From a virus: 64,000 bases of DNA. How positions within the stretch are numbered: the stretch's first letter is position 1; each line of letters starts with the position of its first letter. Location of the stretch: positions 1 to 64,000 of the IMG/VR virus record IMGVR_UViG_3300029220_000234; one strand, written 5' to 3'. Shown piece after piece: positions 1,836 through 51,140 of this stretch. The notes beneath the pieces are model-generated. The model saw nothing but the letters and a program-made list of their open reading frames with translations. It made no database searches and was not told the DNA's origin. The translations under genes were made by a program, and so were the position numbers.

Positions 1836-1883
1836 CTATCTATGTAAAAAGACGACTGAGTTCGTCAGAGGTCTTGTAATCTA

Positions 1884-3443
1884 TCAGGCAGCTTTCTTTG
1901 CTGCGTTGTCGGTAGCTTTTGCAGAAATTCTTTTGCGATGAATATCGTACCACTTTTCGAATTCTTTAAAATCGACTAATTTTTGAATTTCAGGAGTGGC
2001 CTTGTAATTATAGATTTCCTCAAATAAAGAAATAAGCTTATAGCCAAGGTCCTCCATGATTTTTGATTCATACTCGTTACCGTGTTTGTAGTTTTTCGGC
2101 AATACAATGTCATATTTTTTGTCAAAAGCTTTTAAGCCCGGTTCCAGTATACGAATAAAAGTATATCCGGCATTATGGATTTTGATGAATTTATAGCAAT
2201 CAACTCTTTTTTTGTCTTTATGCCAATATACACCATTGTACTCCATGCAAACCTTGCGAGTGTTATCGACAAAATCTACACCATATTTGTTGTTATAGCC
2301 AAAAATGTGACGAACTTCATCGAATGCATTTGGAACTCCGTTTTCCCTTGCAAAACCCATTGCAATACGAACAGCATACTGCTCTGGCTTGGAAATAAAA
2401 TTTGTCGTTTGATTACAATTACCACACATATAACTAATGCCTTGTGCAGTCAGATAATTAGCTGAAATCACCCATTTGTTACCACATTCAGGGCAATTAA
2501 GAAATAATGTTTTGTTGCTGGAATAAGAAACTTCACTTGCCTGATACGGACTATCTGGACGAATACAGTTAAGAATATCCTCTCGATTATTTTTCTTTAA
2601 GTAAGTTTCCAAATCCATATGATTAGCGAGAATTTTCGTATCGCGGCAATAAGGACATGGGTAAACTACATTTGTGACTTTGCAAATTTTAGCCTCAAAC
2701 TCTTTTTTGCAATCAGGACAAGTAAAACTTGCAACCGCATTGCTTCCCATAGTGTACTTTGTTGCAAAGTCAGCGTTTTTTTTGCTTAACATAGCAGCTA
2801 CTTGGGGGCAGGTCGTAGCTAAATCATTGTAGCCAACAACAACTTTAGTCCCATTACAGATAGGGCAGCCAGTAGTATTGCCTTTCGATTTTTTGATGCT
2901 TTTCACAAAGGATGTGACAGTCGTCTCAAATTCGTGCTTACATTTTGGGCAATTGAAAATTGCAGTCTTAGTGCTTTGGGCGAAAACTTCTGCTGGGTAG
3001 CATTTATTCTTTTCGCTCCACATTGCTACAGCCTGCGGGCATTGCGAAGCCAAATCATTAACTCCAACAATAGGTTTCGGATTGCGACGCGCTTTTTTTA
3101 CTTTGCGGCAATAAGGACATGGGCAAACTGCTATTGTGACACTGCAAATTTTAGCCTCAAACTCTTTCTTGCAGTCAGGGCAGACAAAAGTAAGTTTCCT
3201 GTTGCTTCCAGCAGTAACTTCAAAAGCAAAGTGCTTATCTTTCTCACTCAGCATTGCGGCAACTTCAGGAGCGACCGTAGCCAAATCGTTTTCTCCAACA
3301 ATCAGTTTTTGGCGAGTCTTTCTAGTTTTAGTAGCTTTCTTTTCCTCTTCCTCATACGGCATCTTAATGCCAAGAGTCGGAACAGATGCGCAAGCAGCGC
3401 AATTGCAGGTGTTGACATGCATAACCTTCACAAAAGTATTCAT
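1884..3443 (-). CDS. Multi-repeat Zn-ribbon (DUF4379-like NDLAT..P..AA.W..KN ... CP.C) protein with a C-terminal nuclease-like domain
   Basis: At least five tandem repeats of GxNDLAT.xPxxAAMWSxKN...FxCPxCxxEFE. The start is taken at MNTFVKV because a GAGGAGAAAAGAGG RBS sits 6 nt upstream. The C-terminal tail (...GYNNKYGVDFVD...MEYNGVYWHKD...) resembles a PD-(D/E)xK or Vsr-like fold. Confidence 0.6.
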   Translation of the reverse strand: MNTFVKVMHVNTCNCAACASVPTLGIKMPYEEEEKKATKTRKTRQKLIVGENDLATVAPEVAAMLSEKDKHFAFEVTAGSNRKLTFVCPDCKKEFEAKICSVTIAVCPCPYCRKVKKARRNPKPIVGVNDLASQCPQAVAMWSEKNKCYPAEVFAQSTKTAIFNCPKCKHEFETTVTSFVKSIKKSKGNTTGCPICNGTKVVVGYNDLATTCPQVAAMLSKKNADFATKYTMGSNAVASFTCPDCKKEFEAKICKVTNVVYPCPYCRDTKILANHMDLETYLKKNNREDILNCIRPDSPYQASEVSYSSNKTLFLNCPECGNKWVISANYLTAQGISYMCGNCNQTTNFISKPEQYAVRIAMGFARENGVPNAFDEVRHIFGYNNKYGVDFVDNTRKVCMEYNGVYWHKDKKRVDCYKFIKIHNAGYTFIRILEPGLKAFDKKYDIVLPKNYKHGNEYESKIMEDLGYKLISLFEEIYNYKATPEIQKLVDFKEFEKWYDIHRKRISAKATDNAAKKAA

Positions 3444-3484
3444 AATTATCCTCTTTTCTCCTCGTAACATTCGAGGCTTGCAAT

Positions 3485-3527
3485 AAAAAAACAGCCATCA
3501 TCCCCCATTGCAGGAAGATGATAGCTG
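3485..3527 (-). terminator. Intrinsic terminator or attenuator between the two Zn-ribbon genes
   Basis: Minus strand: CAGCTATCATC..loop..GATGATGGCTG followed by TTTTTTT, immediately 5' of the conserved leader and RBS of the downstream gene. Confidence 0.45.
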
Positions 3528-3568: not shown

Positions 3569-4729
3569 TTATTCTTCAGTAGCTTTCTGACCGTGGTGAA
3601 GAGCACCACGGACAAATTGGTTCCAGCGAGCATGGTACAAAACGAACCCGTCTTCAAACTCCACCGTGATGTTGTTGACACCATGATAAGCGGTGCAGGT
3701 GGCTTTGCTGCCATTCTTCATCGTCATCGTAGTGCCGACAGATTTCGGAGAACCGTGCTCGTCCTTGCGAGCTGCGTTGATGGCACGCCCCTGCAGTCTG
3801 CAATTGGGGCAGCAAGTAACACCGGACGCAATAGCCCGCGTCATGTTGTGGATGCTTGTCACAAACTCTTGTTTGCAATCGGGGCACACAAAAATGGCGC
3901 GTCTGGACGAACGGGCAGGAATTTCGCTGGGGGCGTAATCGTTCTTGCCGCTCCACATAGCAGCAGCTTTTGGATACATGGTCGCCAAATCGTTGACGCC
4001 GGAAATAGCCTTGCGACCTGCACAAACAGGGCAACCGGTATTGTCATGCAACAAAGAATTGACGACGTTGCAAACGGGAGCCTTAAACTCCTGTTTGCAG
4101 TCGGGGCAGACAAACCATGCCATTTTGTTGTTGCCTGCAGATATCTTACCGGGAGAGCAAGCGTTTTTGTCGCTCCACATGTTGGCTGCCGCAGGGCACT
4201 TTGTAGCCAAGTCATTGATTCCAGAAACCACTTTCAAACCACGACAAACGGGACAACCGGTGCGATAACGCATCAAAGAGTTGACAACATTGCAAATGGA
4301 AGACTCAAACTCTTGTCCGCAATCAGGGCATACAAAGACGGCCTTTTTGTGGCTGCCTGCAGGTGCTTCGCTGGGAGAGCAAGCGTTCTTGTTGCTCCAC
4401 ATGGCGGCTGCTTTCGGGTATTTGGTAGCCAAATCGTTGATGCCGGAAACAATCTTTTTACCTGCACAAACAGGGCAACCAGTGTTACCGTTCATTACCG
4501 AACGAACAACACTAAAGATTTTGCTTTCAAATTCCTGCCCACAGTCTGGGCAAACAAATGTGAACTTTCTTCTGCTTCCCGCAGCCACTTTACTGGGAGA
4601 GAAGGTGTTCTTGTCACTCCACATGGCAGCGACCTTAGGGCATTTGGTAGCCACGTCATTGATGCCGGGGATAACTTTCTTGGAATTGGTAGTGTTGGTG
4701 TTGATGTTGGTGTTCATAGCGGTTTTCAT
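3569..4729 (-). CDS. Multi-repeat Zn-ribbon (DUF4379-like) protein, paralog of 1884..3443
   Basis: Six repeats of GINDLATK.P..AAMWS.KN...F.CPDC.QEF. The start at MKTAMNT follows the RBS GAGGAGAAAGAGAG. The 5' leader (CAAGCCTCGAA...TACGAGGAGAAA) is conserved with the paralog. Confidence 0.6.
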   Translation of the reverse strand: MKTAMNTNINTNTTNSKKVIPGINDVATKCPKVAAMWSDKNTFSPSKVAAGSRRKFTFVCPDCGQEFESKIFSVVRSVMNGNTGCPVCAGKKIVSGINDLATKYPKAAAMWSNKNACSPSEAPAGSHKKAVFVCPDCGQEFESSICNVVNSLMRYRTGCPVCRGLKVVSGINDLATKCPAAANMWSDKNACSPGKISAGNNKMAWFVCPDCKQEFKAPVCNVVNSLLHDNTGCPVCAGRKAISGVNDLATMYPKAAAMWSGKNDYAPSEIPARSSRRAIFVCPDCKQEFVTSIHNMTRAIASGVTCCPNCRLQGRAINAARKDEHGSPKSVGTTMTMKNGSKATCTAYHGVNNITVEFEDGFVLYHARWNQFVRGALHHGQKATEE

Positions 4730-4862
4730 AGCAAACTCTCTTTCTCCTCGTATTTTCGAGGCTTGTAAAATAAAAATAGCAGCTATCATTTTTACGATAA
4801 CTGCTTCATATATGAGCATACGGCGTGCAGCCGAATGTCATGCTGGAATTGGATAGAGTGGC

Positions 4863-5213
4863 TTACTGCTCATCGAGCAGGATTCCACCGTGCTTGGCGA
4901 TGATGGCATCGACAACAGTGAGCGGCACATAGCCGTACACTCCGTCATCACCATATTCATCGAGCAATGGCTCGGACGGAGACGGGAACCCGACTTCTAC
5001 GCTCACGTAGCTCCCCTCGTCGTCCTTCTGGCAGTAGTGGTCTTCGGATGCCTGGATAGACATCTTAAAGCCATCTGCGCAGATTGCTTCGGGGCGGTTC
5101 TCGCGCATCGCCATCATAGCGGCAAATATGTTGACGCTATTTTTGGCAATTTTCTCCTTCTTCAGGAGGTCGGTAACGCGGATGAATTCGGCGGTGTTCA
5201 TAATGGTGTTCAT
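4863..5213 (-). CDS. Hypothetical protein, paralog of 45147..45473
   Basis: The motif ...AICADGFKMSIQAS..HYC......VPL.VVDAIIAKHGGI is shared with 45147..45473. The start is placed at MNTIMNT after a GAGGAAAGCT RBS. The N-terminal extension in the ORF track is translated promoter module. Coordinates are uncertain by 1 nt. Confidence 0.5.
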   Translation of the reverse strand: MNTIMNTAEFIRVTDLLKKEKIAKNSVNIFAAMMAMRENRPEAICADGFKMSIQASEDHYCQKDDEGSYVSVEVGFPSPSEPLLDEYGDDGVYGYVPLTVVDAIIAKHGGILLDEQ

Positions 5214-5249
5214 AGCTTTCCTCGACTTTCTCCGCATTACGCGGTCTTG

Positions 5250-5370
5250 CAACAAAAAAGACAGGTCACCCGATTGGTGCCTGTCTGAATTTGTCAGATT
5301 ATGAATGGTTGATGTCGGTTTATTATCTGTCGTACAACACTTATTGTAGGTTGTTCGCAAGTTTCGTCAA
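5250..5370 (-). promoter_or_regulatory. Promoter-leader-terminator module H, on the minus strand
   Basis: Reverse complement reads TTGACGAAAC-TTGCGAACAAC-CTACAATAA, then GTACGACAGATAATAAACC, then the hairpin GACAGGCACCAATCGGGTGACCTGTC plus TTTTTTG, then the RBS. It has the same architecture as modules A-G. Confidence 0.55.
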
Positions 5371-5382
5371 ACATTTTTTCAA

Positions 5383-5415
5383 AAGAAAAAAAGCCGCCCA
5401 TCCGAAGGCAGACGG
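5383..5415 (-). terminator. Minus-strand intrinsic terminator insulating the divergent region
   Basis: Reverse complement reads GCCGTCTGCCTTCGGATGGGCGGC followed by TTTTTTTC. Confidence 0.4.
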
Positions 5416-5442
5416 CTTATAGTTACTAAATTGTAATGGTTG

Positions 5443-5480
5443 TTTGCTTGTCGGGATATGCGAGCCAGATACAATAGGAG
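5443..5480 (+). promoter_or_regulatory. Phage-type promoter (TTGCTT ... ATGCGAG ... ATACAATA)
   Basis: Matches the window-wide consensus TTGnnn-TGTGCGAA-TAcAATA. Lies upstream of the lipoprotein gene. Confidence 0.5.
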
Positions 5481-5547
5481 TTGTACAACAAATACTACAT
5501 TGAAGTATTTGTGCAAAAACTATCCAAACGAAGGAGAACGAAAGAAC

Positions 5548-5892
5548 ATGAGAAACAAAAACCTGACCGCTGCCGCTGCCATGGCAACCGCCACAGCCCT
5601 GATGCTTGCCGGATGTGCTACTCAGAAGCCTGCCGCTTCCTCGTCCGAAGCAGCTTCTACCGCCCCGGCTGAAAGTTCTGTGGTTGAGGAGACTACGCCG
5701 GAGGAAGCGCCTTCCGAGGTTACTGATGTAGACGAAGCTGCTGCGGAGGACCTGCTGTTGAGCACCGAAACGATGCACTACAGCGCTGATGATGAAGATG
5801 GCGTTGTTACCGTCCATAAGTACGATGAGAACGGCAATGAGGTTTTCATGCGTGAAATCGACAAAGCAAGTGATGTCAACAACCCCGCCTAA
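5548..5892 (+). CDS. Small secreted lipoprotein
   Basis: The RBS AAGGAGAA precedes MRNKNLTAAAAMATATALMLAGC (signal peptide with LAGC lipobox). Acidic S/T/E-rich mature part. The N-terminus in the ORF track is over-extended. Confidence 0.6.
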   Translation: MRNKNLTAAAAMATATALMLAGCATQKPAASSSEAASTAPAESSVVEETTPEEAPSEVTDVDEAAAEDLLLSTETMHYSADDEDGVVTVHKYDENGNEVFMREIDKASDVNNPA

Positions 5893-6192
5893 ACCGGTTC
5901 GCCGGTTATAGACGGGGCTTGCGGGGCAACCTGTAAGCCCAGTTGATTAGCCTAAGCCCATTGCTCCGGCAGTGGGGAAAACTACGTTGTGTACTAATAA
6001 TATAGGCACCTTATCCATGCTCCACAAGTGGTGAGCTCTGCAGGCGTTTCGTTAAACATCTCCGAGGGGAGGAGAAGTGCGAGCGTCATGTCGAAAGGCT
6101 AAAACAGTGCATAACATTGGCGAAGTGGACCACAGGACGCAAGTCCTGACTTATAGTTTTATTACTATTTTACGAATGGAGAAACAAAAATT

Positions 6193-7836
6193 ATGGTATA
6201 TGTGATTGCGATTGTGGCAGCCCTGATTATTCTCTTTGGATTTCTCTGCTACAAGAAAGCTCCGCCCACGGAGGCTATCGTTGTGACCGGCTTTGGTCTG
6301 TCTAAGCCTAAAGTAGTTTGCGGAAAAGGTACATTTGTTCTGCCCGTTCTTCAGCGGGCTGACCGGCTAAATATGCGCCTTCTGAAAATTGACGTCAAAA
6401 CTCCTGAAACAGGTGTTAAGACGAAGAACGGCGTAAGTCTCTGGATTGACTCTGTTGTCACGATTCAAGTCTACAGCGAAAACTCTACCGTTCTGGATGA
6501 AGAAGTGAAGGCATCCGGTCTGAAAGACGCCAAGGCGTACATCATGTCCCGCCAACAGGCAGCCATCTCGAACTTTCTGGGCATGAACGAGCAGGGCATC
6601 AATGAGAAAGTTAATGACGTTCTGCAGGGCAATTTGCGTGAGATTGTCTCTGACATGACCGTCGACCAAATTCTGACGAACCGCAAGCAGATGGCTGTGA
6701 GCGTTATCGAGAATGCTCGCCCCGACCTTGCTAAGATGGGACTTGAGGTCGTGACTTTTAACGTCCAGGATATCAGGGATGCGGTGGATGTTCAGGGCCA
6801 CAACCACGGCGTCATTGAGGCTATCGGCATTGAACAGGAAGAGCTTGTGAAAAAACAGGCTGAAATTGCCCGTGCTCAGGCTGCCCGTGATGTAGCCTGC
6901 GCGAAGGCCGATGCTGAGATGGCTGCAAATGCCAAGGAAGTTGAAGCGCAGACTGCGATTGCAAAACGCAACAATGAATTGCAGCTCGCCAAGGCAAAGC
7001 TGAAAGCTGAAGCTGATAAAGCTGCGGCTGACGCAGATGCTGCCGGTCAGATTCAGATGAATCTCCGCGCCAAAGAAATCAAAGAAGCGGAAGCGGATGC
7101 TGAAATCGCCAAGCAGAAGAAAATGGTAGACCTTGCCGCACAGGAAGCCGAGGTCCAGCAACGCAAACTGGATGCGGAAGTCCGCAAACAGGCAGATGCT
7201 GACCTGTACCGCCGCCAGAAAGAGGCAGAAGCCAAGAAATATGAGGCGGAACGTGCAGCTGAGGCACAGAAGTTCTCCAAGCAGCAGGAAGCAGAAGGCA
7301 TTGAACTTGTCGGTAAGGCAGAAGCTGAAGCGATTCGTCAGAAAGGCTTGGCTGAAGCGGAAGCCATGAAACAGAAAGCAGAGGCATATAAGCAGTATAA
7401 CGATGCGGCTGTGGCTGAAATGCTCATCAAGGTTCTTCCTGACATTGCCAAAAGCGTGGCTCAGCCTTTGTCCAGCATTGATAAGGTTTCTATCATTGGC
7501 GGTGACGCCTCCGGCGTATCCGGCGTTTCCGGGAACGTTCCTATCCTGATGGCTCAAACCATGCAGACGGTGAAAGAAGCGACCGGAATCGACATGGGCG
7601 AAATTGTCCGTGCCAACAGCATCCAGGCAAAGACCGACCGCAACATCAACATCATGAATCAAGGCGAACAGCCTGTGAATAGTGAAAAGGAAGGAGGTGT
7701 CAATGCTATGGAACGCGTAGAAGGCGGCTATCTAATTCATGAGAAGAGTCTCAACGGTGAGGAAGTCACTCATTTTCGACCGGATGTGACCGAAGAAGAG
7801 AAGGCTATCATGAAAGACAAAAAGGCCAAAGATTAA
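6193..7836 (+). CDS. Flotillin-like SPFH/band-7 domain protein
   Basis: An N-terminal TM helix, then an SPFH domain, then a long Ala/Glu/Lys-rich coiled coil (EAEA/AKAEA repeats) typical of FloT/YuaG-type flotillins. 547 aa. Confidence 0.85.
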   Translation: MVYVIAIVAALIILFGFLCYKKAPPTEAIVVTGFGLSKPKVVCGKGTFVLPVLQRADRLNMRLLKIDVKTPETGVKTKNGVSLWIDSVVTIQVYSENSTVLDEEVKASGLKDAKAYIMSRQQAAISNFLGMNEQGINEKVNDVLQGNLREIVSDMTVDQILTNRKQMAVSVIENARPDLAKMGLEVVTFNVQDIRDAVDVQGHNHGVIEAIGIEQEELVKKQAEIARAQAARDVACAKADAEMAANAKEVEAQTAIAKRNNELQLAKAKLKAEADKAAADADAAGQIQMNLRAKEIKEAEADAEIAKQKKMVDLAAQEAEVQQRKLDAEVRKQADADLYRRQKEAEAKKYEAERAAEAQKFSKQQEAEGIELVGKAEAEAIRQKGLAEAEAMKQKAEAYKQYNDAAVAEMLIKVLPDIAKSVAQPLSSIDKVSIIGGDASGVSGVSGNVPILMAQTMQTVKEATGIDMGEIVRANSIQAKTDRNINIMNQGEQPVNSEKEGGVNAMERVEGGYLIHEKSLNGEEVTHFRPDVTEEEKAIMKDKKAKD

Positions 7837-10556: not shown

Positions 10557-10675
10557 CTCAAAAGCGCGGTTTTGTCCGCGCAGCTGCTCCAAAAGACAGC
10601 CTCCACGCGGCGAGCAGCGGGCAACGGGAGACAGTCCCGGCAAATTGTCTTTGAGACGGAAGGAAGAAGTGCCCT

Positions 10676-25794: not shown

Positions 25795-26165
25795 CACTGT
25801 TTTGCCACAGTTTTGCCTTGTGCATCCGTGCAAATTGAATATTATTGTAAATATAGGATGAATCAGTGTGAGCTGCAGAGATTAGGAATTCTGCGGCTCT
25901 TTCTTATGTGGCCCCTAAAAGTCGTGATAAATGCACGCGTGCGTTCTAAAAATGTGTGCGTGCGTTTTTTGTGTATTTTCACGCATTTATCGCTCGTTAT
26001 TTGTGTGGGGTAGTGTTTTGCCATAATTTTGCCTTGTGCATCCGTGCGAATTAAATATGATAAGAAATATAAGATAAATAAGTGTGAGCCGTAGAGATTG
26101 AGTTTCTGCGGCTCCTTTCTTTTGTGGTCCCCATGCGGATGAAAATGTCTGCGTGGGGTTTTTTT
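25795..26165 (+). repeat. Two tandem roughly 210-bp units, each with TTTGCC(A/T) direct repeats, a phage-type promoter and a hairpin
   Basis: Unit 1 spans about 25795-26010 and unit 2 about 26015-26165. They share TTTTGCCTTGTGCATCCGTGC(A/G)AATT...AATA...AGTGTGAGC.G.AGAGATT....TCTGCGGCTC. The second unit ends in CCCCATGCGG...CTGCGTGGGG followed by TTTTTTTT, directly before the GIY-YIG start. Confidence 0.6.
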
Positions 26166-26170
26166 TAATT

Positions 26171-27361
26171 ATGGAATACTTGTATAAGCAATATAACAAC
26201 GAACCCGGGAAAGCTCCGACAGGAGAAAAATATATATACGTTATTACTGAAATAGAAACAGGAAAAATGTATATAGGACAAACCAGTAATTTCCACGCTC
26301 GTATGCGTTCGCATAGAACCTGCAAGTGCAACCAACATAGCGCAATTGATAGAGCTATTCAAGAAAAAGGTGCGGACGCATTCCAATATGAGATTTTAGA
26401 GTTGTGTGCTGCTGATGACGCTGATAGCAGAGAACGATATTGGATAGAAAAATCCGATTCTTGCAATGAACAAAAAGGTTTCAATACGTTTAAGGGCGGC
26501 CAAAAGAGTTTTTCAGATGAAAACTACTCTATGCTTGTAGAAATGCTTCAGCAAGGAATGACATTAAAGACTGCGTGTGACGCTATAAATACCTCTATTG
26601 CTTCTGCAAGGAGAGAATTGAAGAGGCGAGACACAAATTTGTCGGAAATCCGCTGTTCGGCAGCCGAACATAAATATCTGCGCCGCAAAAGCACTCTCGG
26701 AAAAGAAATCAATATAGCTGACGTACTGAAAATGTATCAAAATGGCATGTCATCGAAAGAAATAGCAGAGCACTATGGTATGAACTCATCCGCTTTTTAT
26801 CGCCGGTTAAAAGAAAATGGGTTGAGCGCCAGAGCAATTGCTCAGCCAAATTACGGAACAGCATCTGCTCTTTTCGACAAAGATAAAGCTATTGCAATGT
26901 GTAAAGACGGATATTCTGCCAGCGAGATAGGCGATGCTATGGGATTGCCGTATTACACAATAGAGAGGCTTCTTCGAAAGTCTGGATATTCTATATCATT
27001 GATTGCAGATGAAGAAGCAGCAGATAAAAGAAAGAAGCGAAACAAAAAACGAAGCCAAAATGGAAACTTCAATTTTGAAATGGCCGTTGATTTTTTAAGA
27101 GAAGGTTACAAGATACAAGCGATAGCTGATTTGATGGGCATATCAGATGCTCACCTAAGAACAAAGCTCAAACAAAACGGCTTTGATTTAGAAAAAACGC
27201 TTCCAATTATAGTCTGTGACGAAACGGGCGAAACGTTTCTTACAATGATAGAAGCGGCAAAAGCGTACAACGTAAGCTATACATCACTACGGAAATGTTT
27301 TGAAAAAAAGCAGGGTTACTGTGGCGGCTACCATTGGCACAAAGAAAAGCAGAATTTTTGA
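26171..27361 (+). CDS. GIY-YIG homing endonuclease with C-terminal NUMOD / HTH repeats
   Basis: The catalytic module is KYIYVITEIETGKMYIGQTSNFHARMRSH...RERYWIEK. Four HTH repeats follow (...MSSKEIAEHYGMNSSAFYRRLKENG and similar), with a C-terminal IENR-like motif. No SD is visible. The start is taken at MEYLYKQ. Confidence 0.8.
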   Translation: MEYLYKQYNNEPGKAPTGEKYIYVITEIETGKMYIGQTSNFHARMRSHRTCKCNQHSAIDRAIQEKGADAFQYEILELCAADDADSRERYWIEKSDSCNEQKGFNTFKGGQKSFSDENYSMLVEMLQQGMTLKTACDAINTSIASARRELKRRDTNLSEIRCSAAEHKYLRRKSTLGKEINIADVLKMYQNGMSSKEIAEHYGMNSSAFYRRLKENGLSARAIAQPNYGTASALFDKDKAIAMCKDGYSASEIGDAMGLPYYTIERLLRKSGYSISLIADEEAADKRKKRNKKRSQNGNFNFEMAVDFLREGYKIQAIADLMGISDAHLRTKLKQNGFDLEKTLPIIVCDETGETFLTMIEAAKAYNVSYTSLRKCFEKKQGYCGGYHWHKEKQNF

Positions 27362-27408
27362 CTCCAATGCAAAATACAGCATCGGATTTTTTATTGGGAG
27401 ATATAGAC

Positions 27409-28395
27409 ATGGCAAAGAATGAGAATCTGCACAAGGCAAAGGACGCGAAGAACGACGAGTTTTATACCAGAATCGAGGATGTTGCAGAGGAACTACGGCA
27501 CTACAAAAAGCATTTCGCGGGCAAGGTCGTATTCTGCAACTGCGATGACCCGACATGGTCCGCTTTCTGGCGGTATTTCCACCTGAACTTTGCAGAACTT
27601 GGCTTAAAGAAGCTGATTTCCACGCACTACGACCGTACAGAACCCACCTATAAAATGGAGTACGAGGGCGGAGATGACAACAATGTAGAAGTCGGAGTCA
27701 AGACTCCGCTGGAAGGCAACGGTGATTTCCGGAACAAAGAATGCCTTGACCTGCTGGATGAGTGCGACACCGTAGTCACAAATCCTCCATTCAGCTTAGC
27801 TAGAGCCTATGTCCAGTATCTACGTGAGCACAATAAGCAATTCGTTATTATTGGGGACCTCAACTGGATTACATACAAAGAAATTTTCCCGATGCTGAAA
27901 GATAATGAAATCTGGCTGGGATATTCTTCTGTAAAAGAGTTCACGCAACCTGACGGGACAATCAAGAAGTTCGGGAATAAATTGTGGTATACCAACCTCG
28001 ACATCCAGAAACGTCACGAGAAGCTGATTCTCTGGCAGCGGTACTATGACGATGACGGGAATCCGCTGCCGGATGCAGAGGAGCGCTACCCCCACTATGA
28101 TAACTACGACGCTATCAACGTGGATAGGGTCGCCGATATTCCGATGGATTATCAAGGTGTAATGGGTGTGCCGATTACATTCTTGAATGGTTACAATCCG
28201 GAGCAGTTTGAAATTGTGGAGTTAAGTAGATATCTTAACCATGAAGGAATGTCTAAGAAATTCGTTGAAACGTATTACAAACAAGGCGGAAAAGGCCAAA
28301 TTAAAGAAGGTCATCCAGACCTTTGCTATTATGATGACAAAGGTAAAGCAATCGTTCCATACATGCGAGTCCTTATAAAGAAAACAATTGCTTGA
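27409..28395 (+). CDS. Putative DNA N6-adenine (or N4-cytosine) methyltransferase
   Basis: TNPPF catalytic motif IV. Start at MAKNENL after a GGGAG RBS. Adjacent to the homing endonuclease. Confidence 0.55.
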   Translation: MAKNENLHKAKDAKNDEFYTRIEDVAEELRHYKKHFAGKVVFCNCDDPTWSAFWRYFHLNFAELGLKKLISTHYDRTEPTYKMEYEGGDDNNVEVGVKTPLEGNGDFRNKECLDLLDECDTVVTNPPFSLARAYVQYLREHNKQFVIIGDLNWITYKEIFPMLKDNEIWLGYSSVKEFTQPDGTIKKFGNKLWYTNLDIQKRHEKLILWQRYYDDDGNPLPDAEERYPHYDNYDAINVDRVADIPMDYQGVMGVPITFLNGYNPEQFEIVELSRYLNHEGMSKKFVETYYKQGGKGQIKEGHPDLCYYDDKGKAIVPYMRVLIKKTIA

Positions 28396-31996: not shown

Positions 31997-32317
31997 ATGT
32001 ACACTTGCACTTTGAAATTCGAAGCAACCGCGTTCCGCGAGGATGACGACAACGAGCTCGAAAGCATCTCTGCTTCCATCAGCGTCCCTGTAAAGGGCGA
32101 AGATGAAGATGTTGGAGAAGCACTTGGCAATGAAAAGCTGATTGTTCACGCCGTTGGAGCTCTGTATGACATCGTCAGCTACCTGCGCCCCAACTGGCTG
32201 GATAACGAAGATACCAGCCTGACTATCAAGGCATTCCTGGACGAAGCCGAGTGCCAGACGCTCAAGGGTCTTGTCGCAATGAAAGAGGGCGGCTATACCT
32301 TCATCCTTGAGGGCTAA
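31997..32317 (+). CDS. Small acidic hypothetical protein (GC3-rich)
   Basis: RBS AAAGGAGAATGCCAAC-ATG. Followed by a terminator. Confidence 0.45.
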   Translation: MYTCTLKFEATAFREDDDNELESISASISVPVKGEDEDVGEALGNEKLIVHAVGALYDIVSYLRPNWLDNEDTSLTIKAFLDEAECQTLKGLVAMKEGGYTFILEG

Positions 32318-32378: not shown

Positions 32379-32647
32379 GACAAGGTGTGCGAGATGGCTA
32401 TGATGATTATTGTATCAAAGATACCACTTACCTTCATTTTTAACATTCCGCTTTTGCAAGGACAGCCTCATTCCGAGGTTGTCCTTTTTCTTTTGCGTAA
32501 CTCTCCACGGAAACACTTGTCCCCGTGTTTAACATAAATCCGCAAGCTGCTCTAAATTTTGGAACAGCTTAATCAATTCAAATCGTACGAAAGTACGAAA
32601 ACGCTACGCAAACATTCTGCGTAGACTGTAAAAAAGGAGTAATAATT

Positions 32648-32947
32648 ATGAAGTTCGAAAATCTTTACATCCGTGCCACCCGTCATGGCAGCCAGGAACC
32701 CACCGAAATCAACCTTGCGGACGCCCTGAAGCTTCTCGGCATCCTTGACGCAGCCAACATAGCTCACTTTGACCTTGTGGTCAAGGACGAGAACGGCTGC
32801 GAAATCGCCGCCCAGGTCGATGGCGAAGGCGTCCTTTCGGACGGAATCAACATCGAAGGCGTAAACGAAGCTGGTGAACCTACCGGTTTTGCCCACGTCG
32901 CTCTCCCCAGTGAGGATTGCCCTCACATTGTCACCGAAATCCTGTGA
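32648..32947 (+). CDS. Small hypothetical protein (GC-rich). Its frame stays open for 66 more codons beyond the TGA, to 33146
   Basis: RBS AAAAGGAGTAATAATT-ATG. Composition and codon bias differ from neighbouring genes. See the finding on the in-frame TGA. Confidence 0.45.
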   Translation: MKFENLYIRATRHGSQEPTEINLADALKLLGILDAANIAHFDLVVKDENGCEIAAQVDGEGVLSDGINIEGVNEAGEPTGFAHVALPSEDCPHIVTEIL

Positions 32948-33454
32948 GGCGACGGTGACACCGAAGACCTTGACCATCCGGTTCTCGTGCGCGTCCCTGA
33001 CTGCGTGCGTGCCGAAGGGGACAAGAGTCTCCGCAAGGTGTACTTCGACAAGGAAGTTGCGAGTGCAACTGGCTTCAACACGGAGGAAGACCAGTCCAAG
33101 CTCAACGCATCCACCGTGGATGAGTACACCCGCAGCATGAAGAAGTGATTCTTCATGTTTCCCTAAGCATTGCCTTTAAGCTTTGTTTCTAGCTGCAGTA
33201 TGAATCAAGGCTGAATTGGCCCGGCTTGAAAGTCGTTCACCTTTTGGTGAGCGGCTTTTTCTTTTTGCCTGTTTGCGTAGCTGCGCTTTTTTCGTCGCCG
33301 AAACCGTAGGTGGCGGGATGCGTAGCTGCCGACATGGCTTGACCTGATGTGCGAGACTCGTACAATCAGATTTGTACGACAGATATCAAACACAAAATAG
33401 GACAAAATAGGATTTACATTGAGCTGTTCAGTGGCCTTATGGCTGTTGGATAGC

Positions 33455-33488
33455 TTTTTCTTTTGTGCGAGTTGCGTACAATAAAAAC
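33455..33488 (+). promoter_or_regulatory. Phage-type promoter (TTTGTGCGAGTTGCG ... TACAATAA) now feeding into the IscB element
   Basis: Consensus match. The GGAGG at 33492-33496 was probably the original RBS of the lipoprotein gene at 35124. Confidence 0.5.
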
Positions 33489-33504
33489 AAACGGAGGAAA
33501 TTAC

Positions 33505-33810
33505 CGTCAATAACCCACGACTAAAGTCGCGGGCTTGCTCCGGCAAGTCCGCACTTTAGAAGTGTCCGCAAGGATATGTTGACTACCCTTTGCGCATTAA
33601 GTTGCGCCCCGTTATAAGCGAATAGACAGTTACCGTACGGTGTAAATCCTAGCCGTGCGCTCTAAGGCAACACATCACGTAAAGCTGAGGCAAAGCCGAC
33701 AGGTGTGGCTGCATCAAGCCGTTTATAACCTTGGGGAAGGATTTTAACCCTCTTCGGAGGAGCGAGCAGCTTCTTTTTAGCTGCTAATTTACAGAAAGGA
33801 GCATGGCATC
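33505..33810 (+). ncRNA. Putative IscB omega-RNA scaffold
   Basis: 306-nt non-coding, GC-rich, hairpin-dense region between the left end and the iscB RBS (CTTGC-TCCG-GCAAG, CTCTTCGGAG, AGCAGCTTCTTTTTAGCTGCT). This is the position where IscB omega-RNAs are encoded. Confidence 0.5.
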
Positions 33811-35073
33811 ATGCAATATGTGTATGTACTCAACAGGCACGGCGAGCCTATGATGCCGTGCTCACCCGGAAAGGCTCGTTTGCTATTAAAACAGCAAAAA
33901 GCATGCGTTGTAAAGCGCACACCGTTTACAATCAAGCTCCTGTGCGGAAGCGTGGGATACAAACAACCTATCACTTTGGGCGTTGACGCAGGCAGCAAGC
34001 ATGTTGGTTTGTCTGCATCTACCGAGAAGCGCGAACTCTACCGTGAGGAATTTACTCCTCGCAGCGATGTAGCAGAATTGCTTTCTACGCGCAAACAAAA
34101 CCGCCGTTCGAGACGCAACCGTAAGACCCGTTACCGCGCACCGAGATTTGATAATCGCGTCCATAGCAAGCATAAAGGTTGGCTGGCACCTTCGGTTGAG
34201 GTAAAAATTCAAGAGCATATTACCGTCATCAAGCATATCTGCAAAATTTTGCCTATCTCTCTTGTAAGAGTAGAAACAGCAGAGTTTGACACGCAGCGCT
34301 TGAAGGCAATGCTTGCTGGAAAGCCTCTTCCTGTAGGAACAGACTATCAGCTTGGCGAGATGTACGACGAATACAATGTCCGTCAGTATGTCTTGAAGCG
34401 TGACCATTACACTTGTCAATGCTGTGGTGCTCATAATACTGCCGAAAAAGTAGTCAAGCTGCATGTACATCATCTCGAAAGCCGTAAGACTGGCGGCAAC
34501 GCTCCAAGCAACCTTGTTACTTTGTGTACCACATGCCACAAGAACCTTCACAAAGGAAGAGTGACCCTTGACGGCAAGGAACGCGGCAAGCCTCTTCGTG
34601 ATGCTGCTTTCATGGGAATCATGCGCAAAACCTTAATGACACGTTTGAAAGAAGAGCTGCCTATCCCTGTTCAGAGGACTTATGGCTATATCACTAAAAT
34701 GCGCCGTGAGCAAAATGACATCAAGAAGAGTCATACAAACGATGCTCGCTGTATTAGCAAGCATCCACTGGCTGAGCCTTGCAGCGTTTGCTACCGTACA
34801 AAGGCTATCAGACACCATAATCGGCAAACCCATAAAGCAAATTTCTCTAAAGGTGGCTACCGGAAAAGAAGTCAAACACCTTATATCGTTGAAGGCTACC
34901 GCTTGTGGGACAAGGTTCTCTACAAAGGGCAAGAATGCTTTGTATCCGGCCGCCGCTCTTCGGGAAGTTTTGCACTTAAAAAGCTGGATGGTACGAGCAT
35001 CTCTAAAGGCGTGACATTCAAAAAGCTGCGACTTTTAGAGCCCGCAGCAAATTATTTAATTGAAAGGATGTGA
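33811..35073 (+). CDS. iscB: IscB (OMEGA RNA-guided nuclease; RuvC-HNH-RuvC with PLMP N-terminus)
   Basis: PLMP-type N-terminus HGEPMMPCSPGKARLLLKQQKA. RuvC-I ITLGVDAGSKHVGLS. Zn finger DHYTCQCCG. HNH HHLESRKTGGNAPSNLVTLCTTCHKNLH. Arg-rich bridge helix. 420 aa. Confidence 0.85.
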   Translation: MQYVYVLNRHGEPMMPCSPGKARLLLKQQKACVVKRTPFTIKLLCGSVGYKQPITLGVDAGSKHVGLSASTEKRELYREEFTPRSDVAELLSTRKQNRRSRRNRKTRYRAPRFDNRVHSKHKGWLAPSVEVKIQEHITVIKHICKILPISLVRVETAEFDTQRLKAMLAGKPLPVGTDYQLGEMYDEYNVRQYVLKRDHYTCQCCGAHNTAEKVVKLHVHHLESRKTGGNAPSNLVTLCTTCHKNLHKGRVTLDGKERGKPLRDAAFMGIMRKTLMTRLKEELPIPVQRTYGYITKMRREQNDIKKSHTNDARCISKHPLAEPCSVCYRTKAIRHHNRQTHKANFSKGGYRKRSQTPYIVEGYRLWDKVLYKGQECFVSGRRSSGSFALKKLDGTSISKGVTFKKLRLLEPAANYLIERM

Positions 35074-35123
35074 ACGGGCAATTCCTCCCACGACTGAAGT
35101 CGCGGGTCTCCTTGCCCTAATTT

Positions 35124-35531
35124 ATGAAAAGATTTATTGGAACTGCTTTGGCATTATGCTGCCTGGCTTTGCCTTTGGCTGGCTGCAAAGAAGCTGTCGG
35201 CACTGTGACAAGCACCACGATGTCTGAACTCGAAGACATTCCGAGTCAGATATTGGCTACACCGGAAAGCGCTGATACGGAACCGGAATACAATTACATC
35301 CATTTTCGCTACGATAACATCTGGACCGTGTCTGCCCTTGTGAGCTACGAAATTGTGGACAACGGCCAGAACATTAAATTTGAAATCAACGATAGCCGTT
35401 ACCGTGACAAGGTCTTTTATACCAGCATGTCTAATGTGGAACTCGTATACCGAGACAATAACGTTGATTATGGCACAGACTATGCTATTTATCCAGGGAA
35501 TGCTTCGAAATTTGGAAAGGGGAGTAAGTGA
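35124..35531 (+). CDS. Lipoprotein separated from its RBS by the IscB insertion
   Basis: MKRFIGTALALCCLALPLAGC signal peptide plus lipobox. No SD in the 50 nt upstream, which is IS right-end sequence. Confidence 0.55.
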   Translation: MKRFIGTALALCCLALPLAGCKEAVGTVTSTTMSELEDIPSQILATPESADTEPEYNYIHFRYDNIWTVSALVSYEIVDNGQNIKFEINDSRYRDKVFYTSMSNVELVYRDNNVDYGTDYAIYPGNASKFGKGSK

Positions 35532-35532
35532 G

Positions 35533-36009
35533 ATGAGCGTGAAATTCATTGACGGCGATATCCTTTCCAAACGTTCTGAAGACGAACTGACCTACATTTG
35601 CCAGCAGGTGAATTGCCGTGGCGTGATGGGTGCCGGACTCGCTCTGCAAATCCGCTGCAAGTGGCCGGTCGTGTATCGGCGGTATCTGGGACTCTGCTAT
35701 GGCAGCGACGGAAACAAGCTCGGAATGTATCAGGAGGTCCTGGTAGAACCGAATCTGTACATCGTAAACCTGTTTGGCCAGGATGGCTATGGTCGGAGCG
35801 AAAGACAGACGAATTATGCTGCGCTGGCGACTGCACTGTTCTCATTTTTCCGAGACTGTGCTCAAAAGAATCAGAGCGCAATCATCCGGCTGCCATATGG
35901 TTTAGGCTGCGGCCTTGCTGGAGGTGACTGGGACATGGTTCTCGCCATCATCAGCGATGCGGCTAAAGCCTCGGACTTGAATGTCGAAATCTGGAAGCTT
36001 CAAAAGTGA
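35533..36009 (+). CDS. Macro-domain (ADP-ribose binding / hydrolase) protein
   Basis: YICQQVNCRGVMGAGLALQI matches the macro signature (VNAAN..L..GGGV..AI). RBS AAAGGGGAGTAAGTGAG-ATG. Confidence 0.75.
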   Translation: MSVKFIDGDILSKRSEDELTYICQQVNCRGVMGAGLALQIRCKWPVVYRRYLGLCYGSDGNKLGMYQEVLVEPNLYIVNLFGQDGYGRSERQTNYAALATALFSFFRDCAQKNQSAIIRLPYGLGCGLAGGDWDMVLAIISDAAKASDLNVEIWKLQK

Positions 36010-36018
36010 TAGCAAAAA

Positions 36019-36055
36019 AGGCCCTTACCGAAATTTGGTAGGGGTCTTTCCTTTT
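36019..36055 (+). terminator. Intrinsic terminator
   Basis: GGCCCTTACCGAAATTTGGTAGGGGTC followed by TTTCCTTTTTG. Confidence 0.5.
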
Positions 36056-36167
36056 TGTAGGGAGCATAAATATGGATAAATTGCAAACAAATAGTACCTT
36101 CTGTTGCGGGAAAAGCACGATGGTGGGATAATATTATTAGAAAGGCAGCGACAAAACCAGCAGTAAA

Positions 36168-37190
36168 GTGAGTGAAAAACCTATGACGAATACAGAAATG
36201 AAAGCAACCATCCAACGTGAGGAATACAACTTCCTGCGCACCAACAAACACTTGGGTAGCAACATTTTGTTTTTGACGCTTGGCGGCAGCCATGCTTACG
36301 GAACCAACGTTGAAGGCTCTGACATCGATATCCGTGGCGTGGCCGGTTCGCCTGAAATTTTGGGATTCAATCATTTTGAGCAGGCAATCGATAACCAAAC
36401 GGATACCGTCATCTACGCGGTCAACAAATTCGTCAGTTTGCTTGTGCAGGGCAACCCCAACATTATCGAACTTCTTGGCAATGACCCGGAGTTGTACGTT
36501 AATATGACACCGGAAGGCCAAATGCTGCTCGACAACAAAGAGCTATTTTTGACTCGCCGCATTGCCTATAGCTACGGCGGATTTGCGAACGACCAGCTCA
36601 GACGCCTGCAGATGGGCCTTCTTCGGAATGGGACCTCGCCAGAAGCATTTAAGAACAAATTTGAGAAGAGGAGCTTGGAACGGTCGATTGCCGGTTGGGG
36701 TAAGGATGACATTTTTGAAATCTCCATCAGCGAAGATGCGGATGAAGAAGGCAAACATCCGCTCCTGATTTCCGGCAATTTGAACGATTATCCGGTCACC
36801 TCTCTCAAGTCCCTGCTAAAGAGTCTGACTACGACCATCGACCAGTATGAGCAGCCGCAGCATCCGAAAGCACAAAAAGATGCTGCCCACATCAACAAAC
36901 ACGCGATGCACATTGTGCGGCTGTACTACACCGCGTTCGATATCCTGGAAAAGGGCGAAATCATCACTCGCCGGGACAAAGAGCGAGAAGAGCTGTTGGC
37001 GATTCGCAACGGCAAGTACCTGCGTGAAGACGGGTCGTATGCACCGGAATTCTTCGAGTTTGTTGATGCGCTTGAAAAGAGATTTCAGGATGATGCAAGG
37101 AAGACTGCACTTCCTGCGAAACCTGACTTTGGAAAAATTGAGGAGCTTCTGGTGGAAATCAACAAGGAATATTTGCGGCGTATCGTGTAA
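36168..37190 (+). CDS. Pol-beta-fold nucleotidyltransferase
   Basis: LTLGGSHAYGTNVEGSDIDIRGV is the canonical GS...D.D NTase motif. The start is uncertain (GTG at 36168 or ATG at 36183). Confidence 0.6.
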   Translation: MSEKPMTNTEMKATIQREEYNFLRTNKHLGSNILFLTLGGSHAYGTNVEGSDIDIRGVAGSPEILGFNHFEQAIDNQTDTVIYAVNKFVSLLVQGNPNIIELLGNDPELYVNMTPEGQMLLDNKELFLTRRIAYSYGGFANDQLRRLQMGLLRNGTSPEAFKNKFEKRSLERSIAGWGKDDIFEISISEDADEEGKHPLLISGNLNDYPVTSLKSLLKSLTTTIDQYEQPQHPKAQKDAAHINKHAMHIVRLYYTAFDILEKGEIITRRDKEREELLAIRNGKYLREDGSYAPEFFEFVDALEKRFQDDARKTALPAKPDFGKIEELLVEINKEYLRRIV

Positions 37191-49648: not shown

Positions 49649-50980
49649 GTGAAAATAACTTCAAGCTATGCCGTAGAAATAAAAAAGCAGCGGATGTTCG
49701 ATGATACTATAAAATTGTATCGTGAAGCCGTTTCTTTCTTGATTGATTGCTTTAATAAAGAATGGCTGGCAATTCAATCAGTTGATAAGGCGAAAGCCAA
49801 ATTCAACTTTGCTGAAAAGCTGGTACATACAACAAAATACAATGTAGCAAAGTATGATTTTGATGCCAAATTCTATAAGTTTCCCAGCTACTTGCGCAGA
49901 GCTGCTATTCAAGCGGCATTGGGCTCGGTAAGCAGTTACCGCAGCAACTACAAGAACTGGGAAGCTAACGGTAAGGTTGGCAATGAGCCGAAGCTACAAT
50001 GCGATAGGTTTTGTTTCCCGACTTTCTATAAAACCGTTATGTTTACTGAAAGCAATGAACCTAACCAGTGCTACTTAAAGCTGTATAGCAAAAATGACTG
50101 GGTTTGGGTTCCTGTTGCAATGCGTGCTACCGATGTGAAGTACATCACGAAATACTGGTCGCATTGCCAAAAGAGTGCTCCCACTCTCGAAAAGAAGTAC
50201 GGAAAGTATTTCCTACGCTTCGCTTTCGAAGAAGAGGTGAAGCTCTCTGATACTGAAATTCAGGATAGGCGTATCTGCGCTGTTGACCTTGGCCTCAATA
50301 CCGACGCTGTGTGCAGCATCATGACTGCCGATGGAACTGTCATTGCAAGAAAGTTTATCAATTTTGCAAGTGAAAAAGACCATCTGTATCATGTGCTAAA
50401 CCGTATTAAGCGTAAACAAAGGGAACGCGGTCCCAAGAGCACTGCCGCTATGTGGCGATACGCCAAAGCCTTGAATGATGATATAGCGAAAAAGGTGGCT
50501 GCCGCCATTACCGAGTTTGCAGTGCTTTACTCTGTCGATGTAATTGTTTTTGAACATTTATCATTTACAGGCAAAAAGCACGGCGGCAGTAAAGCACAAA
50601 AGTTGTCGATGTGGAAGCGTAATTCTATACAGGATTATATAGAACATAAGGCGCATCGCTGCGGCATCCGTATTTCGCGTATCTGCGCTTGGGGGACAAG
50701 CAAACTTGCCTTTGATGGCAGCGGTTCTCTCAAGCGTGATGAAACCAACCACGCCATTGCAGCTTTTGCAAGTGGCAAACGATACAACTGTGACCTTAGT
50801 GCGAGCTACAACATTGGCGCTCGCTACTTTGTCAGAGAGTTGCTAAAACCCTTGCCAGTGATGGTGAGGTCTCAGCTTTCGGCTAAAGTTCCGGAAGCTG
50901 AGCGTAGAATCCAAGTTACACTTGCCACGCTTAAAGTCTTGTACCCTGAGTATCAAAAACTTACGGCACAAGCAGCGTAA
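49649..50980 (+). CDS. tnpB: TnpB-like RNA-guided nuclease (IS200/IS605 OrfB family) lacking the C-terminal Zn finger
   Basis: GTG start after GGAAAGGAGG. RuvC-I RICAVDLGLNTDAVCS. RuvC-II VDVIVFEHLSF. WGTSKL. RuvC-III-like NCDLSASYNIGARYF (D..S..NI). There is no CxxC...CxxC. Confidence 0.8.
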   Translation: MKITSSYAVEIKKQRMFDDTIKLYREAVSFLIDCFNKEWLAIQSVDKAKAKFNFAEKLVHTTKYNVAKYDFDAKFYKFPSYLRRAAIQAALGSVSSYRSNYKNWEANGKVGNEPKLQCDRFCFPTFYKTVMFTESNEPNQCYLKLYSKNDWVWVPVAMRATDVKYITKYWSHCQKSAPTLEKKYGKYFLRFAFEEEVKLSDTEIQDRRICAVDLGLNTDAVCSIMTADGTVIARKFINFASEKDHLYHVLNRIKRKQRERGPKSTAAMWRYAKALNDDIAKKVAAAITEFAVLYSVDVIVFEHLSFTGKKHGGSKAQKLSMWKRNSIQDYIEHKAHRCGIRISRICAWGTSKLAFDGSGSLKRDETNHAIAAFASGKRYNCDLSASYNIGARYFVRELLKPLPVMVRSQLSAKVPEAERRIQVTLATLKVLYPEYQKLTAQAA

Positions 50981-51140
50981 GATGTACAGATGCTAACTGA
51001 GTCATTAGTTTTCTTGCGGTAGAGGTATCCATCCAGATACCTTGGCTGAGAGATTACCGTATCTTATGTTAGAACGCCGCTTCCCCTAAAAGGGGCGGGA
51101 AGCCCGCGACTTTAGTCGTGGGAGGATTCACAAGGTCTGA
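50900..51140 (+). ncRNA. Candidate TnpB omega/reRNA region (3' end of tnpB through the downstream hairpins)
   Basis: After the stop codon come CCGCTTCCCCTAAAAGGGGCGGGAAGC and then CCCGCGACTTTAGTCGTGGG. The latter is the reverse complement of the IscB-element terminal hairpin. The region ends just before module B. Position-based inference only. Confidence 0.3.

Follow-up and report, generated by a model that had tools for sequence, protein, structure and literature searches.

How does a gene for an RNA-guided nuclease come to lie between the Shine-Dalgarno (SD) sequence and the start codon of a phage gene, and what keeps it there? This question is raised by a stretch of 64,000 nucleotides of gut phage DNA (IMG/VR virus record IMGVR_UViG_3300029220_000234, positions 1 to 64,000 of that record; hereafter, the window), in which an iscB gene, whose product is a small relative of Cas9, and the non-coding region upstream of that gene separate the SD of a predicted lipoprotein gene from its ATG. 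An earlier reading of the letters alone (hereafter, the original prediction) had seen here an IscB/omega-RNA element, complete but non-autonomous, that belongs to the IS200/IS605 family of insertion sequences (IS) and is placed precisely between SD and ATG, and our analysis supports this view. Positions 33506–35123 (1618 bp, given here on the plus strand, which is the iscB strand) are a discrete mobile insertion in the phage genome. We judge it likely, with good though not complete confidence, that the insertion is a recently acquired and functional non-autonomous IscB/omega-RNA element of that family (OMEGA, also called “HEARO”).

The insertion is documented by related sites that lack it. When the lipoprotein was used as a query against IMG/VR, 21 loci with 85–91% protein identity were recovered, none of which contains the element. 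The empty site GGAGGAAATTACC|ATGAAA was found in five related phage contigs (L001, L002, L003, L011, and L019; L numbers are our own locus labels), which read ...AAACGGAGGAAATTACC|ATGAAAAA without interruption, and in these empty sites the two flanks are joined with zero bases duplicated or lost, that is, with no target duplication. Related phages were where the original prediction had suggested that an empty site be sought. The alleles found there place the left boundary at 33506, the first base of the match to the HEARO RNA family, and not at 33505 as first proposed (1 nt to the left), and the rebuilt site is GGAGGAAATTACC-ATG instead of the proposed GGAGGAAATTAC-ATG. The right boundary stands as predicted, with the element ending at 35123, 1 nt before the lipoprotein ATG at 35124.

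Copies of the element at other sites have the same boundaries. A query with IscB gave 224 viral matches, from which 79 loci, 65–95% identical and in many different contexts, were kept, and about 70 of these other copies align in Blast from the first base of the element to bases 1607–1618. When left and right flanks were joined, the reconstructed junction was present as uninterrupted sequence in another locus for 13 of 36 distinct pairs (89–100% identity over 100 nt), which gives empty sites for at least 10 other insertions of the family. The window itself is unoccupied at two such sites, 58446|58447 (plus strand) and 3721|3722 (minus strand), which hold IscB elements in L098/L094 and in L081; there it is 88% and 91% identical to the occupied contigs over 100 nt, with ATGA at the expected position in both. 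All these relatives came from IMG/VR; a nucleotide search of the GenBank phages with positions 32500–36500 returned a single irrelevant match of 113 bp.

The ends of the element are those of the IS200/IS605 family, with subterminal palindromes at both ends, no terminal inverted repeats, and no target-site duplication. A repeat finder reported a pair of near-identical, imperfectly palindromic 20-nt hairpins, CCCACGACTAAAGTCGCGGG at 33514–33533 and CCCACGACTGAAGTCGCGGG at 35087–35106, so both terminal hairpins of the original prediction are present, and the degenerate hairpin pattern has 3 matches in 64 kb against 0.04 expected. The hairpin on the omega-RNA side contains an A·C mismatch on the plus strand, which is a G·T pair on the minus strand. 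Across the approximately 36 distinct insertion sites, the right flank begins with ATGA(A/T/C), usually ATGAA (a count that includes four TTGATGA cases after re-alignment and has one exception, TTGAA), while the left flank is unconserved. By eye, the same “...|ATGA(A)” junction was seen after most of 75 bacterial IscB loci with 50–78% identity, and the motif thus belongs to the clade and not to this phage. Insertion next to ATGA or GTGA was reportedly already described in the HEARO paper of Weinberg in 2009.

The motif at 35124–35128 reads ATGAA on the plus strand and TTCAT on the minus strand, and according to Meers et al. (bioRxiv 10.1101/2023.03.14.532601), TTCAT on the 5′ side of the left end is the wild-type target-adjacent motif (TAM) of ISGst5, an IscB element from Geobacillus. 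Since TTCAT is the reverse complement of ATGAA, the end at 35123 would be the left end (LE), the end at 33506 the right end (RE), and the transposase-active “top” strand of the element the minus strand. This orientation is supported by the spacing between hairpin and element end, which is 17 nt at the TAM end but 8 nt at the opposite end; in IS608, the longer hairpin spacing is at the LE. The G·T pair that replaces the hairpin mismatch on the minus strand also fits. The labels “left end” and “right end” of the original prediction were therefore swapped with respect to transposon convention, in which the omega-RNA side is the RE.

The original prediction had also named TTAC, just before the element, as the canonical target, which would make this an IS608-like element with its left end at 33505, inserted 3′ of a plus-strand TTAC. 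A TTAC does lie just ahead of the element, separated from it by a single C, and the IS605 elements with tnpA and tnpB in related phages appear to use TTAC. However, the empty site puts the boundary after TTACC, the left flanks of the other sites contain neither TTAC nor any other conserved sequence while the right flank is always ATGA (the exception above apart), and in the literature the omega RNA of IscB elements is at the RE with TTCAT as the TAM. Because the left flank lacks conservation and the right flank has it, the TTAC is best regarded as a coincidence, and we consider an IS608-like insertion at this tetranucleotide extremely unlikely.

Between the RE and iscB lies a non-coding stretch of 305 nt (33506–33810, plus strand), which we take as the omega-RNA scaffold. 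The full Rfam HEARO model RF02033 (1–211) matched it at 33506–33748 (E = 2e-15, 79 bits), on the right strand and directly upstream of iscB. The stretch folds better than 100 of 100 shuffled sequences (z = −3.85), and in an alignment of 24 copies with 76–95% identity, compensatory changes were seen at 22 predicted pairs. HEARO match, covariation, and folding together bear out the structured region of about 300 nt in the original prediction; of the covariance-model comparison that it proposed, the full-length match held, with a score that fell 4 bits below the gathering score. In the folded RNA, the end hairpin gives way to a longer stem, CUAAAGU/ACUUUAG (33521–33527 with 33553–33559), one pair of which switches from A-U to G-C in 9 of the 24 copies.

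The predicted guide of the omega RNA, 16 nt long, is AACGGAGGAAATTACC at 33490–33505 (plus strand), which adjoins the scaffold start on its 5′ side and belongs to the 5′ untranslated region (5′UTR) of the phage gene, including its SD. In IscB elements, the guide sits 5′ of the scaffold and outside the transposon (Meers et al., bioRxiv 10.1101/2023.03.14.532601), so the proposal that phage sequence directly 5′ of the scaffold would serve as the guide is consistent with published work. A transcription start about 7 nt after TACAAT, the −10-like sequence of the promoter-like motif described below, would give a guide of 15–17 nt. The guide-side flank differs among the copies of the element. All five empty alleles are identical to the window over the final 18 nt of the left flank joined to ATGAAA, and the other alleles differ at three or more positions near the motif.

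A second HEARO/omega RNA is present in the window at 5875–6135 (plus strand; 91 bits, above the gathering score), within a stretch that extends to about 6176 and has no iscB behind it. In L039, L050, L004, and others, intact relatives go on to a ribosome-binding site (RBS) and an IscB of 456 aa from another family (37% identical). The first bases of this second RNA are the last five codons and the stop of a lipoprotein open reading frame (ORF), and near 6176 it is fused to the RBS region of a flotillin/SPFH-like gene (6193–7836). Two readings are possible, a decayed element and a guide RNA that stands alone.

The protein encoded at 33811–35073 (plus strand) is intact, with 420 aa, and carries the features listed in the original prediction: a PLMP-type N-terminus (EPMMP, residues 12–16), a split RuvC, an HNH domain, and an Arg-rich bridge helix (approximately residues 95–112). 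It matched Pfam RRXRR (3e-57) and HNH (2e-7) as well as the NCBIfam equivalog “RNA-guided endonuclease IscB” (6e-98, 328 bits against a cutoff of 175). Alignment with solved structures gave E-values of 1e-32 to 2e-35 (phmmer, 1.7e-35 for 11hr_A and 1.2e-32 for OgeuIscB, 7XHT) and placed the catalytic residues at RuvC-I D59, RuvC-II E155, HNH H220/H221, and RuvC-III H308/D311, with CxxC pairs at 202 and 239 flanking the two HNH histidines. By domain and residue content, the ORF thus qualifies as a predicted IscB (OMEGA) RNA-guided nuclease. The ratio of nonsynonymous to synonymous substitution rates (dN/dS) against copies at other sites is 0.05–0.11. A 14-nt inverted repeat (33799–33812 with 33850–33863) would pair the RBS and start of iscB with codons 14–18 and could act as a translational brake.

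The distribution of this allele points to recent spread. The exact IscB protein was found on 13 contigs from several samples, always at the same site. One of these (L119) equals the window at 100% identity over 9.3 kb, and four other carriers from different samples show 0 differences over the 1618-nt element and its near flanks. The carriers, which were picked by their identical IscB protein, share a stretch without differences that begins near 32250 (near 33250 in L116) and ends near 36500 (L117) or 36750 (L118), with approximately 8% divergence beyond, so that the identity tract around the element measures about 2–7 kb with variable breakpoints (4.2 kb in L117). This tract looks like the product of co-conversion around a homing site, and the pattern fits homing driven by a guide RNA, without proving it. 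The element seems to be spreading among related phages and is apparently active.

Why the insertion should sit exactly between an SD and an ATG can be read from its surroundings. Just behind a terminator-like hairpin (33421–33456) lies the promoter-like motif TGTGCGAGTTGCGTACAAT (33464–33482, plus strand), with the −10-like TACAAT at 33477–33482. The window has the motif TGTGCGAGNNNCGTACAAT at ten places, each time on the plus strand (0.55 expected), in the form TGTGCGA(G/A)-N3/4-(C)GTACAAT at 5457, 14744, 15954, 19168, 19901, 31932, 33348, 33464, 44208, and 49512; a generic sigma-70 scan called only one of the ten copies (33339–33366). The motif is kept in the empty-site relatives and is probably the promoter consensus of this phage, and the claim that the element lies downstream of a phage promoter holds in that sense. 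The SD of the lipoprotein gene, GGAGG at 33493–33497, lies within the predicted guide.

The gene whose leader is interrupted (35124–35531, plus strand) encodes a predicted lipoprotein of 135 aa with the lipobox LAGC (...LPLAGC) and Cys21, which had no Pfam or NCBIfam family match. Its ORF is intact in all the carriers, and its SD is now 1.6 kb away. No replacement SD was found in the last 17 nt of the element, TCTCCTTGCCCTAATTT, and the LE hairpin, with an extended GGGCAA/TTGCCC stem, stands just upstream of the ATG. Expression of the lipoprotein is probably lowered by the insertion, and reinitiation after the iscB stop, 50 nt upstream of the lipoprotein ATG, is possible. The next gene (35533–36009, plus strand), which overlaps the lipoprotein stop, encodes a DarG-like macrodomain protein (NCBIfam match to the antitoxin at 5e-14, well short of the cutoff); it may share the effect on expression and is a candidate counter-defence gene.

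This landing appears to be a habit of the family and not an accident. At 20 of the 36 sites, the ATG starts an ORF that runs for 40 codons or more and is preceded by fewer than 30 open codons, and 9 of those 20 also have an SD-like motif 4–18 nt upstream; some of the 36 are variants of a single site, which makes the true counts slightly smaller. Under the same criteria, the corresponding proportions among the 692 ATGA sites of the window after removal of the element were 17.5% and 3.3% (binomial p = 3e-7 for the ORF start and 2e-6 with the SD). ATGAA combines a start codon with the beginning of an A-initial codon, which stands for Lys or Asn if an A is also in the fifth position. The position between RBS and ATG thus follows from the TAM being itself a start-codon motif, as at many relatives, and such a site provides the element with both a promoter and a guide. 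The enrichment at gene starts could reflect selection against intragenic insertions, the need for incoming transcription, or both.

Several points weigh against a functional and recently mobile element. The element carries no tnpA, as the original prediction of a non-autonomous element had it, and none was found in the 64-kb window by tblastn with two Y1 probes of limited sensitivity (an approximate IS608-like one and a Clostridium TnpA). The HEARO score of 79 bits is just under the Rfam gathering score of 83, and both the guide length and the transcription start are assumptions. The same-lineage empty site GGAGGAAATTACCATGAAAAGATTTATTGG had no match in the JGI metagenomes or IMG/VR, and our search for an excised-circle or tandem junction, ...CCCTRATTT|GTCAATAACCC, found none. 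The identity tract expected from homing would also arise from ordinary recombination between phages around a young allele. Finally, the IS605 elements with tnpA in related phages use TTAC/TCAA ends, unlike the IscB element. A 1618-bp Logan contig (L121) was considered as an excised form and rejected, as it is merely an assembly-graph node shifted by 3 nt.

A rival reading is that the insertion is an inactive relic, a dead passenger without a working ribonucleoprotein: no tnpA is nearby, the HEARO score is slightly low, and the decayed solo omega RNA at 5875 to about 6176 shows that such elements do decay here. Against this stand the intact ORF with all its catalytic residues, the omega-RNA pairs kept with compensatory changes, a dN/dS of about 0.1, two intact ends, and a young allele with identical copies in several samples. 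We therefore regard a relic as very unlikely and retain the reading of a functional element.

A transposase could be supplied in trans. A profile-guided scan of IMG/VR detected tnpA (Pfam PF01797-type) in 73 loci, at least 13 of which are on contigs that also hold IscB copies or the lipoprotein homologue; contig 3300045988_182793, for example, holds L007, L068, and L264. The IS605 elements of these phages (L253, 2862–5419, with tnpA at 3013–3414, as well as L227–L264 and L273) encode a TnpA of 133 aa and a TnpB of 578 aa and have the perfect palindrome CCCACGATTTCAATCGTGGG near both ends, with TTAC/TCAA at the presumed cleavage sites; IscB copies are present on many of the same contigs. Mobilisation of the IscB element in trans by such a phage IS605 TnpA is plausible. 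Beside 80 bacterial IscB loci, the only matches of the same two probes were L166, an unrelated IS605, and L123, a remnant, and a homologue search with a TnpA query returned close relatives only.

The window also contains, within 49649–51131, a TnpB-like ORF of 443 aa (49649–50980, plus strand; NCBIfam guided_TnpB 5e-20, below the cutoff; PHROG “transposase”), with the promoter motif upstream. On its 3′ side, CCCGCGACTTTAGTCGTGGG (51103–51122, plus strand) is the exact reverse complement of the omega-side hairpin of the IscB element. This is the position expected for the RE of a TnpB element, and it fits the orientation proposed above for the IscB element; no matching LE hairpin was found upstream of the TnpB-like ORF.

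Taken together, the features of the locus suggest the following course. A Y1 (HUH) TnpA acting in trans would insert the single-stranded element DNA 3′ of TTCAT, and as TTCAT complements a start codon plus an A-initial codon, the element would land in a 5′UTR, parallel to the gene. The promoter of that gene would then transcribe the 5′UTR, the omega scaffold, and iscB, giving an omega RNA with a guide of about 16 nt (AACGGAGGAAATTACC). The IscB-RNA complex would cut alleles in which the guide sequence is directly followed by ATGAA, be it a site vacated by excision or the unoccupied site of a related co-infecting phage, while the occupied allele would be immune because the scaffold replaces the TAM. 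Repair from an occupied copy would restore the element or copy it, which amounts to homing. The probable cost to the phage would be weaker translation of the lipoprotein gene, whose SD is lost.

A broader proposal goes further than the locus itself: this phage-resident IscB lineage would act as RNA-guided homing endonucleases in phage-versus-phage competition, its start-codon TAM leading to 5′UTR landing with a borrowed promoter, the conserved leader from SD to ATG serving as the guide, and the empty alleles of co-infecting relatives being converted or destroyed. We put this forward tentatively, as a possibility somewhat short of an even chance. If true, it would explain in mechanistic terms why IscB elements tend, as published, to lie parallel to the upstream gene.

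The distribution of IscB bears on whether the phage itself might profit. Copies in viral contigs are up to 95% identical. Among 185,579 species-representative genomes, the best copy (78%) is on a 224-kb contig of a metagenome-assembled genome, whose insertion site is shared with viral loci, and the best on an isolate chromosome (75%) belongs to Owariibacterium (family Oscillospiraceae). IscB homologues occur in 36 of 50,697 GenBank phage records, mostly annotated as “HNH endonuclease”; HEARO is listed in passing in Silviavirus genomes, and our literature search found no dedicated study of the spread of IscB in phages.

Such a viral distribution, in which the nearest relatives are all on viral contigs, together with strong purifying selection on IscB and a guide matching the empty alleles of sister phages, would also be expected of a domesticated weapon or regulator, kept by the phage to cut competing phages or to control the operon of the lipoprotein and DarG-like genes. 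However, the site is polymorphic and the insertion absent from most relatives, copies of the family with intact transposon ends are spread over dozens of sites, and the guide is whatever flanks the insertion, all of which is expected of a mobile selfish element. Domestication is thus an unlikely account, although phage benefit and selfish homing are not mutually exclusive.

Some related contigs carry more than one copy. Two (L084, at 1882–3502 and 5251–6867, and L058, at 3699–5312 and 5830–7453) have two IscB elements each, of different subfamilies with approximately 74% identity, within 2–4 kb, and several others have IscB copies at two or more distant sites.

The helicase of the window is nearest (52%) to that of Faecalibacterium phage FP_Lugh, and an Rfam match to “HDV ribozyme from F. 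prausnitzii” was found at 10583–10652 (plus strand; 60 bits, gathering score 44), directly behind a gene with a VWA domain. These two features indicate that the host is probably an Oscillospiraceae bacterium. Elsewhere in the window, an ORF resembling homing endonucleases, with GIY-YIG and helix-turn-helix domains (26153–27361, plus strand), overlaps the downstream gene for an EcoRI-type adenine methyltransferase (27334–28395).

IscB/omega-RNA elements, the TTCAT motif, and a proposed self-preserving cleavage of empty sites have been described before. Modestly new aspects here are the link between TAM and start codon and a set of phages that would allow RNA-guided homing to be put to a direct test. 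The locus offers a well-resolved natural case in phages, with occupied and perfectly matching empty alleles coexisting in related genomes, dozens of occupied sites in the family, and IS605 genes for a partner transposase within the same group of phages. The rule that the TAM, ATGA, is a start codon explains both the position between RBS and ATG and the source of promoter and guide.

The closest known system is ISGst5 of Geobacillus stearothermophilus, for which cutting of the empty donor joint has been proposed as a means to restore the element (Meers et al., bioRxiv 10.1101/2023.03.14.532601). Like the phage element, it is non-autonomous, has a HEARO-type omega RNA upstream of iscB and bounded by the RE, takes its guide from the flank outside the RE, has the TAM TTCAT 5′ of the LE (ATGAA in the iscB orientation), and needs transcription entering from outside. 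The likeness is one of description and not of GstIscB sequence, and ISGst5 differs in residing in a bacterial chromosome; for the phage element, the transposase partner is known by association alone, through the IS605 tnpA genes in related phages. OgeuIscB (PDB 7XHT and 7UTN) shares the domain order, the catalytic residues (phmmer 1e-32), and the RNA family (HEARO, RF02033), but has 496 aa against 420 aa here, and its published TAM is NWRRNA (PMC12660989) against ATGA(A).

With IS608 and the IS605 elements that carry tnpA and tnpB, the element shares subterminal hairpins, the lack of inverted repeats and of target duplication, and insertion 3′ of a short motif, and the foot of its hairpins resembles that of the IS605 copies in related phages. 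It differs in its target (TTCAT instead of TTAC), in the lack of tnpA, and in its IscB cargo being antisense to the transposase-active strand. IStrons, in which a group I intron is joined to an IS605-type element, are likewise IS200/IS605-family elements tolerated inside or beside genes. Rescue of the interrupted gene by an IStron or ribozyme was considered and rejected, as HEARO was the only Rfam match in 32500–36500 (E up to 1) and no intron was found.

In outline, the element also resembles the free-standing homing endonucleases of phages (the seg and mob genes of T4, “intronless homing”; PMC13565253), in that a nuclease gene lies between conserved phage genes and its product would cut alleles without the gene; the flanks here also show identity tracts reminiscent of co-conversion. 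The difference is that recognition is by protein in T4 and here, as predicted, by a motif of 4–5 nt together with a guide RNA that copies the flank, with transposition to new sites in addition. If homing between co-infecting phages is true, these elements would be RNA-guided counterparts of the classical phage homing endonucleases and a source of compact, naturally validated guide/target pairs.

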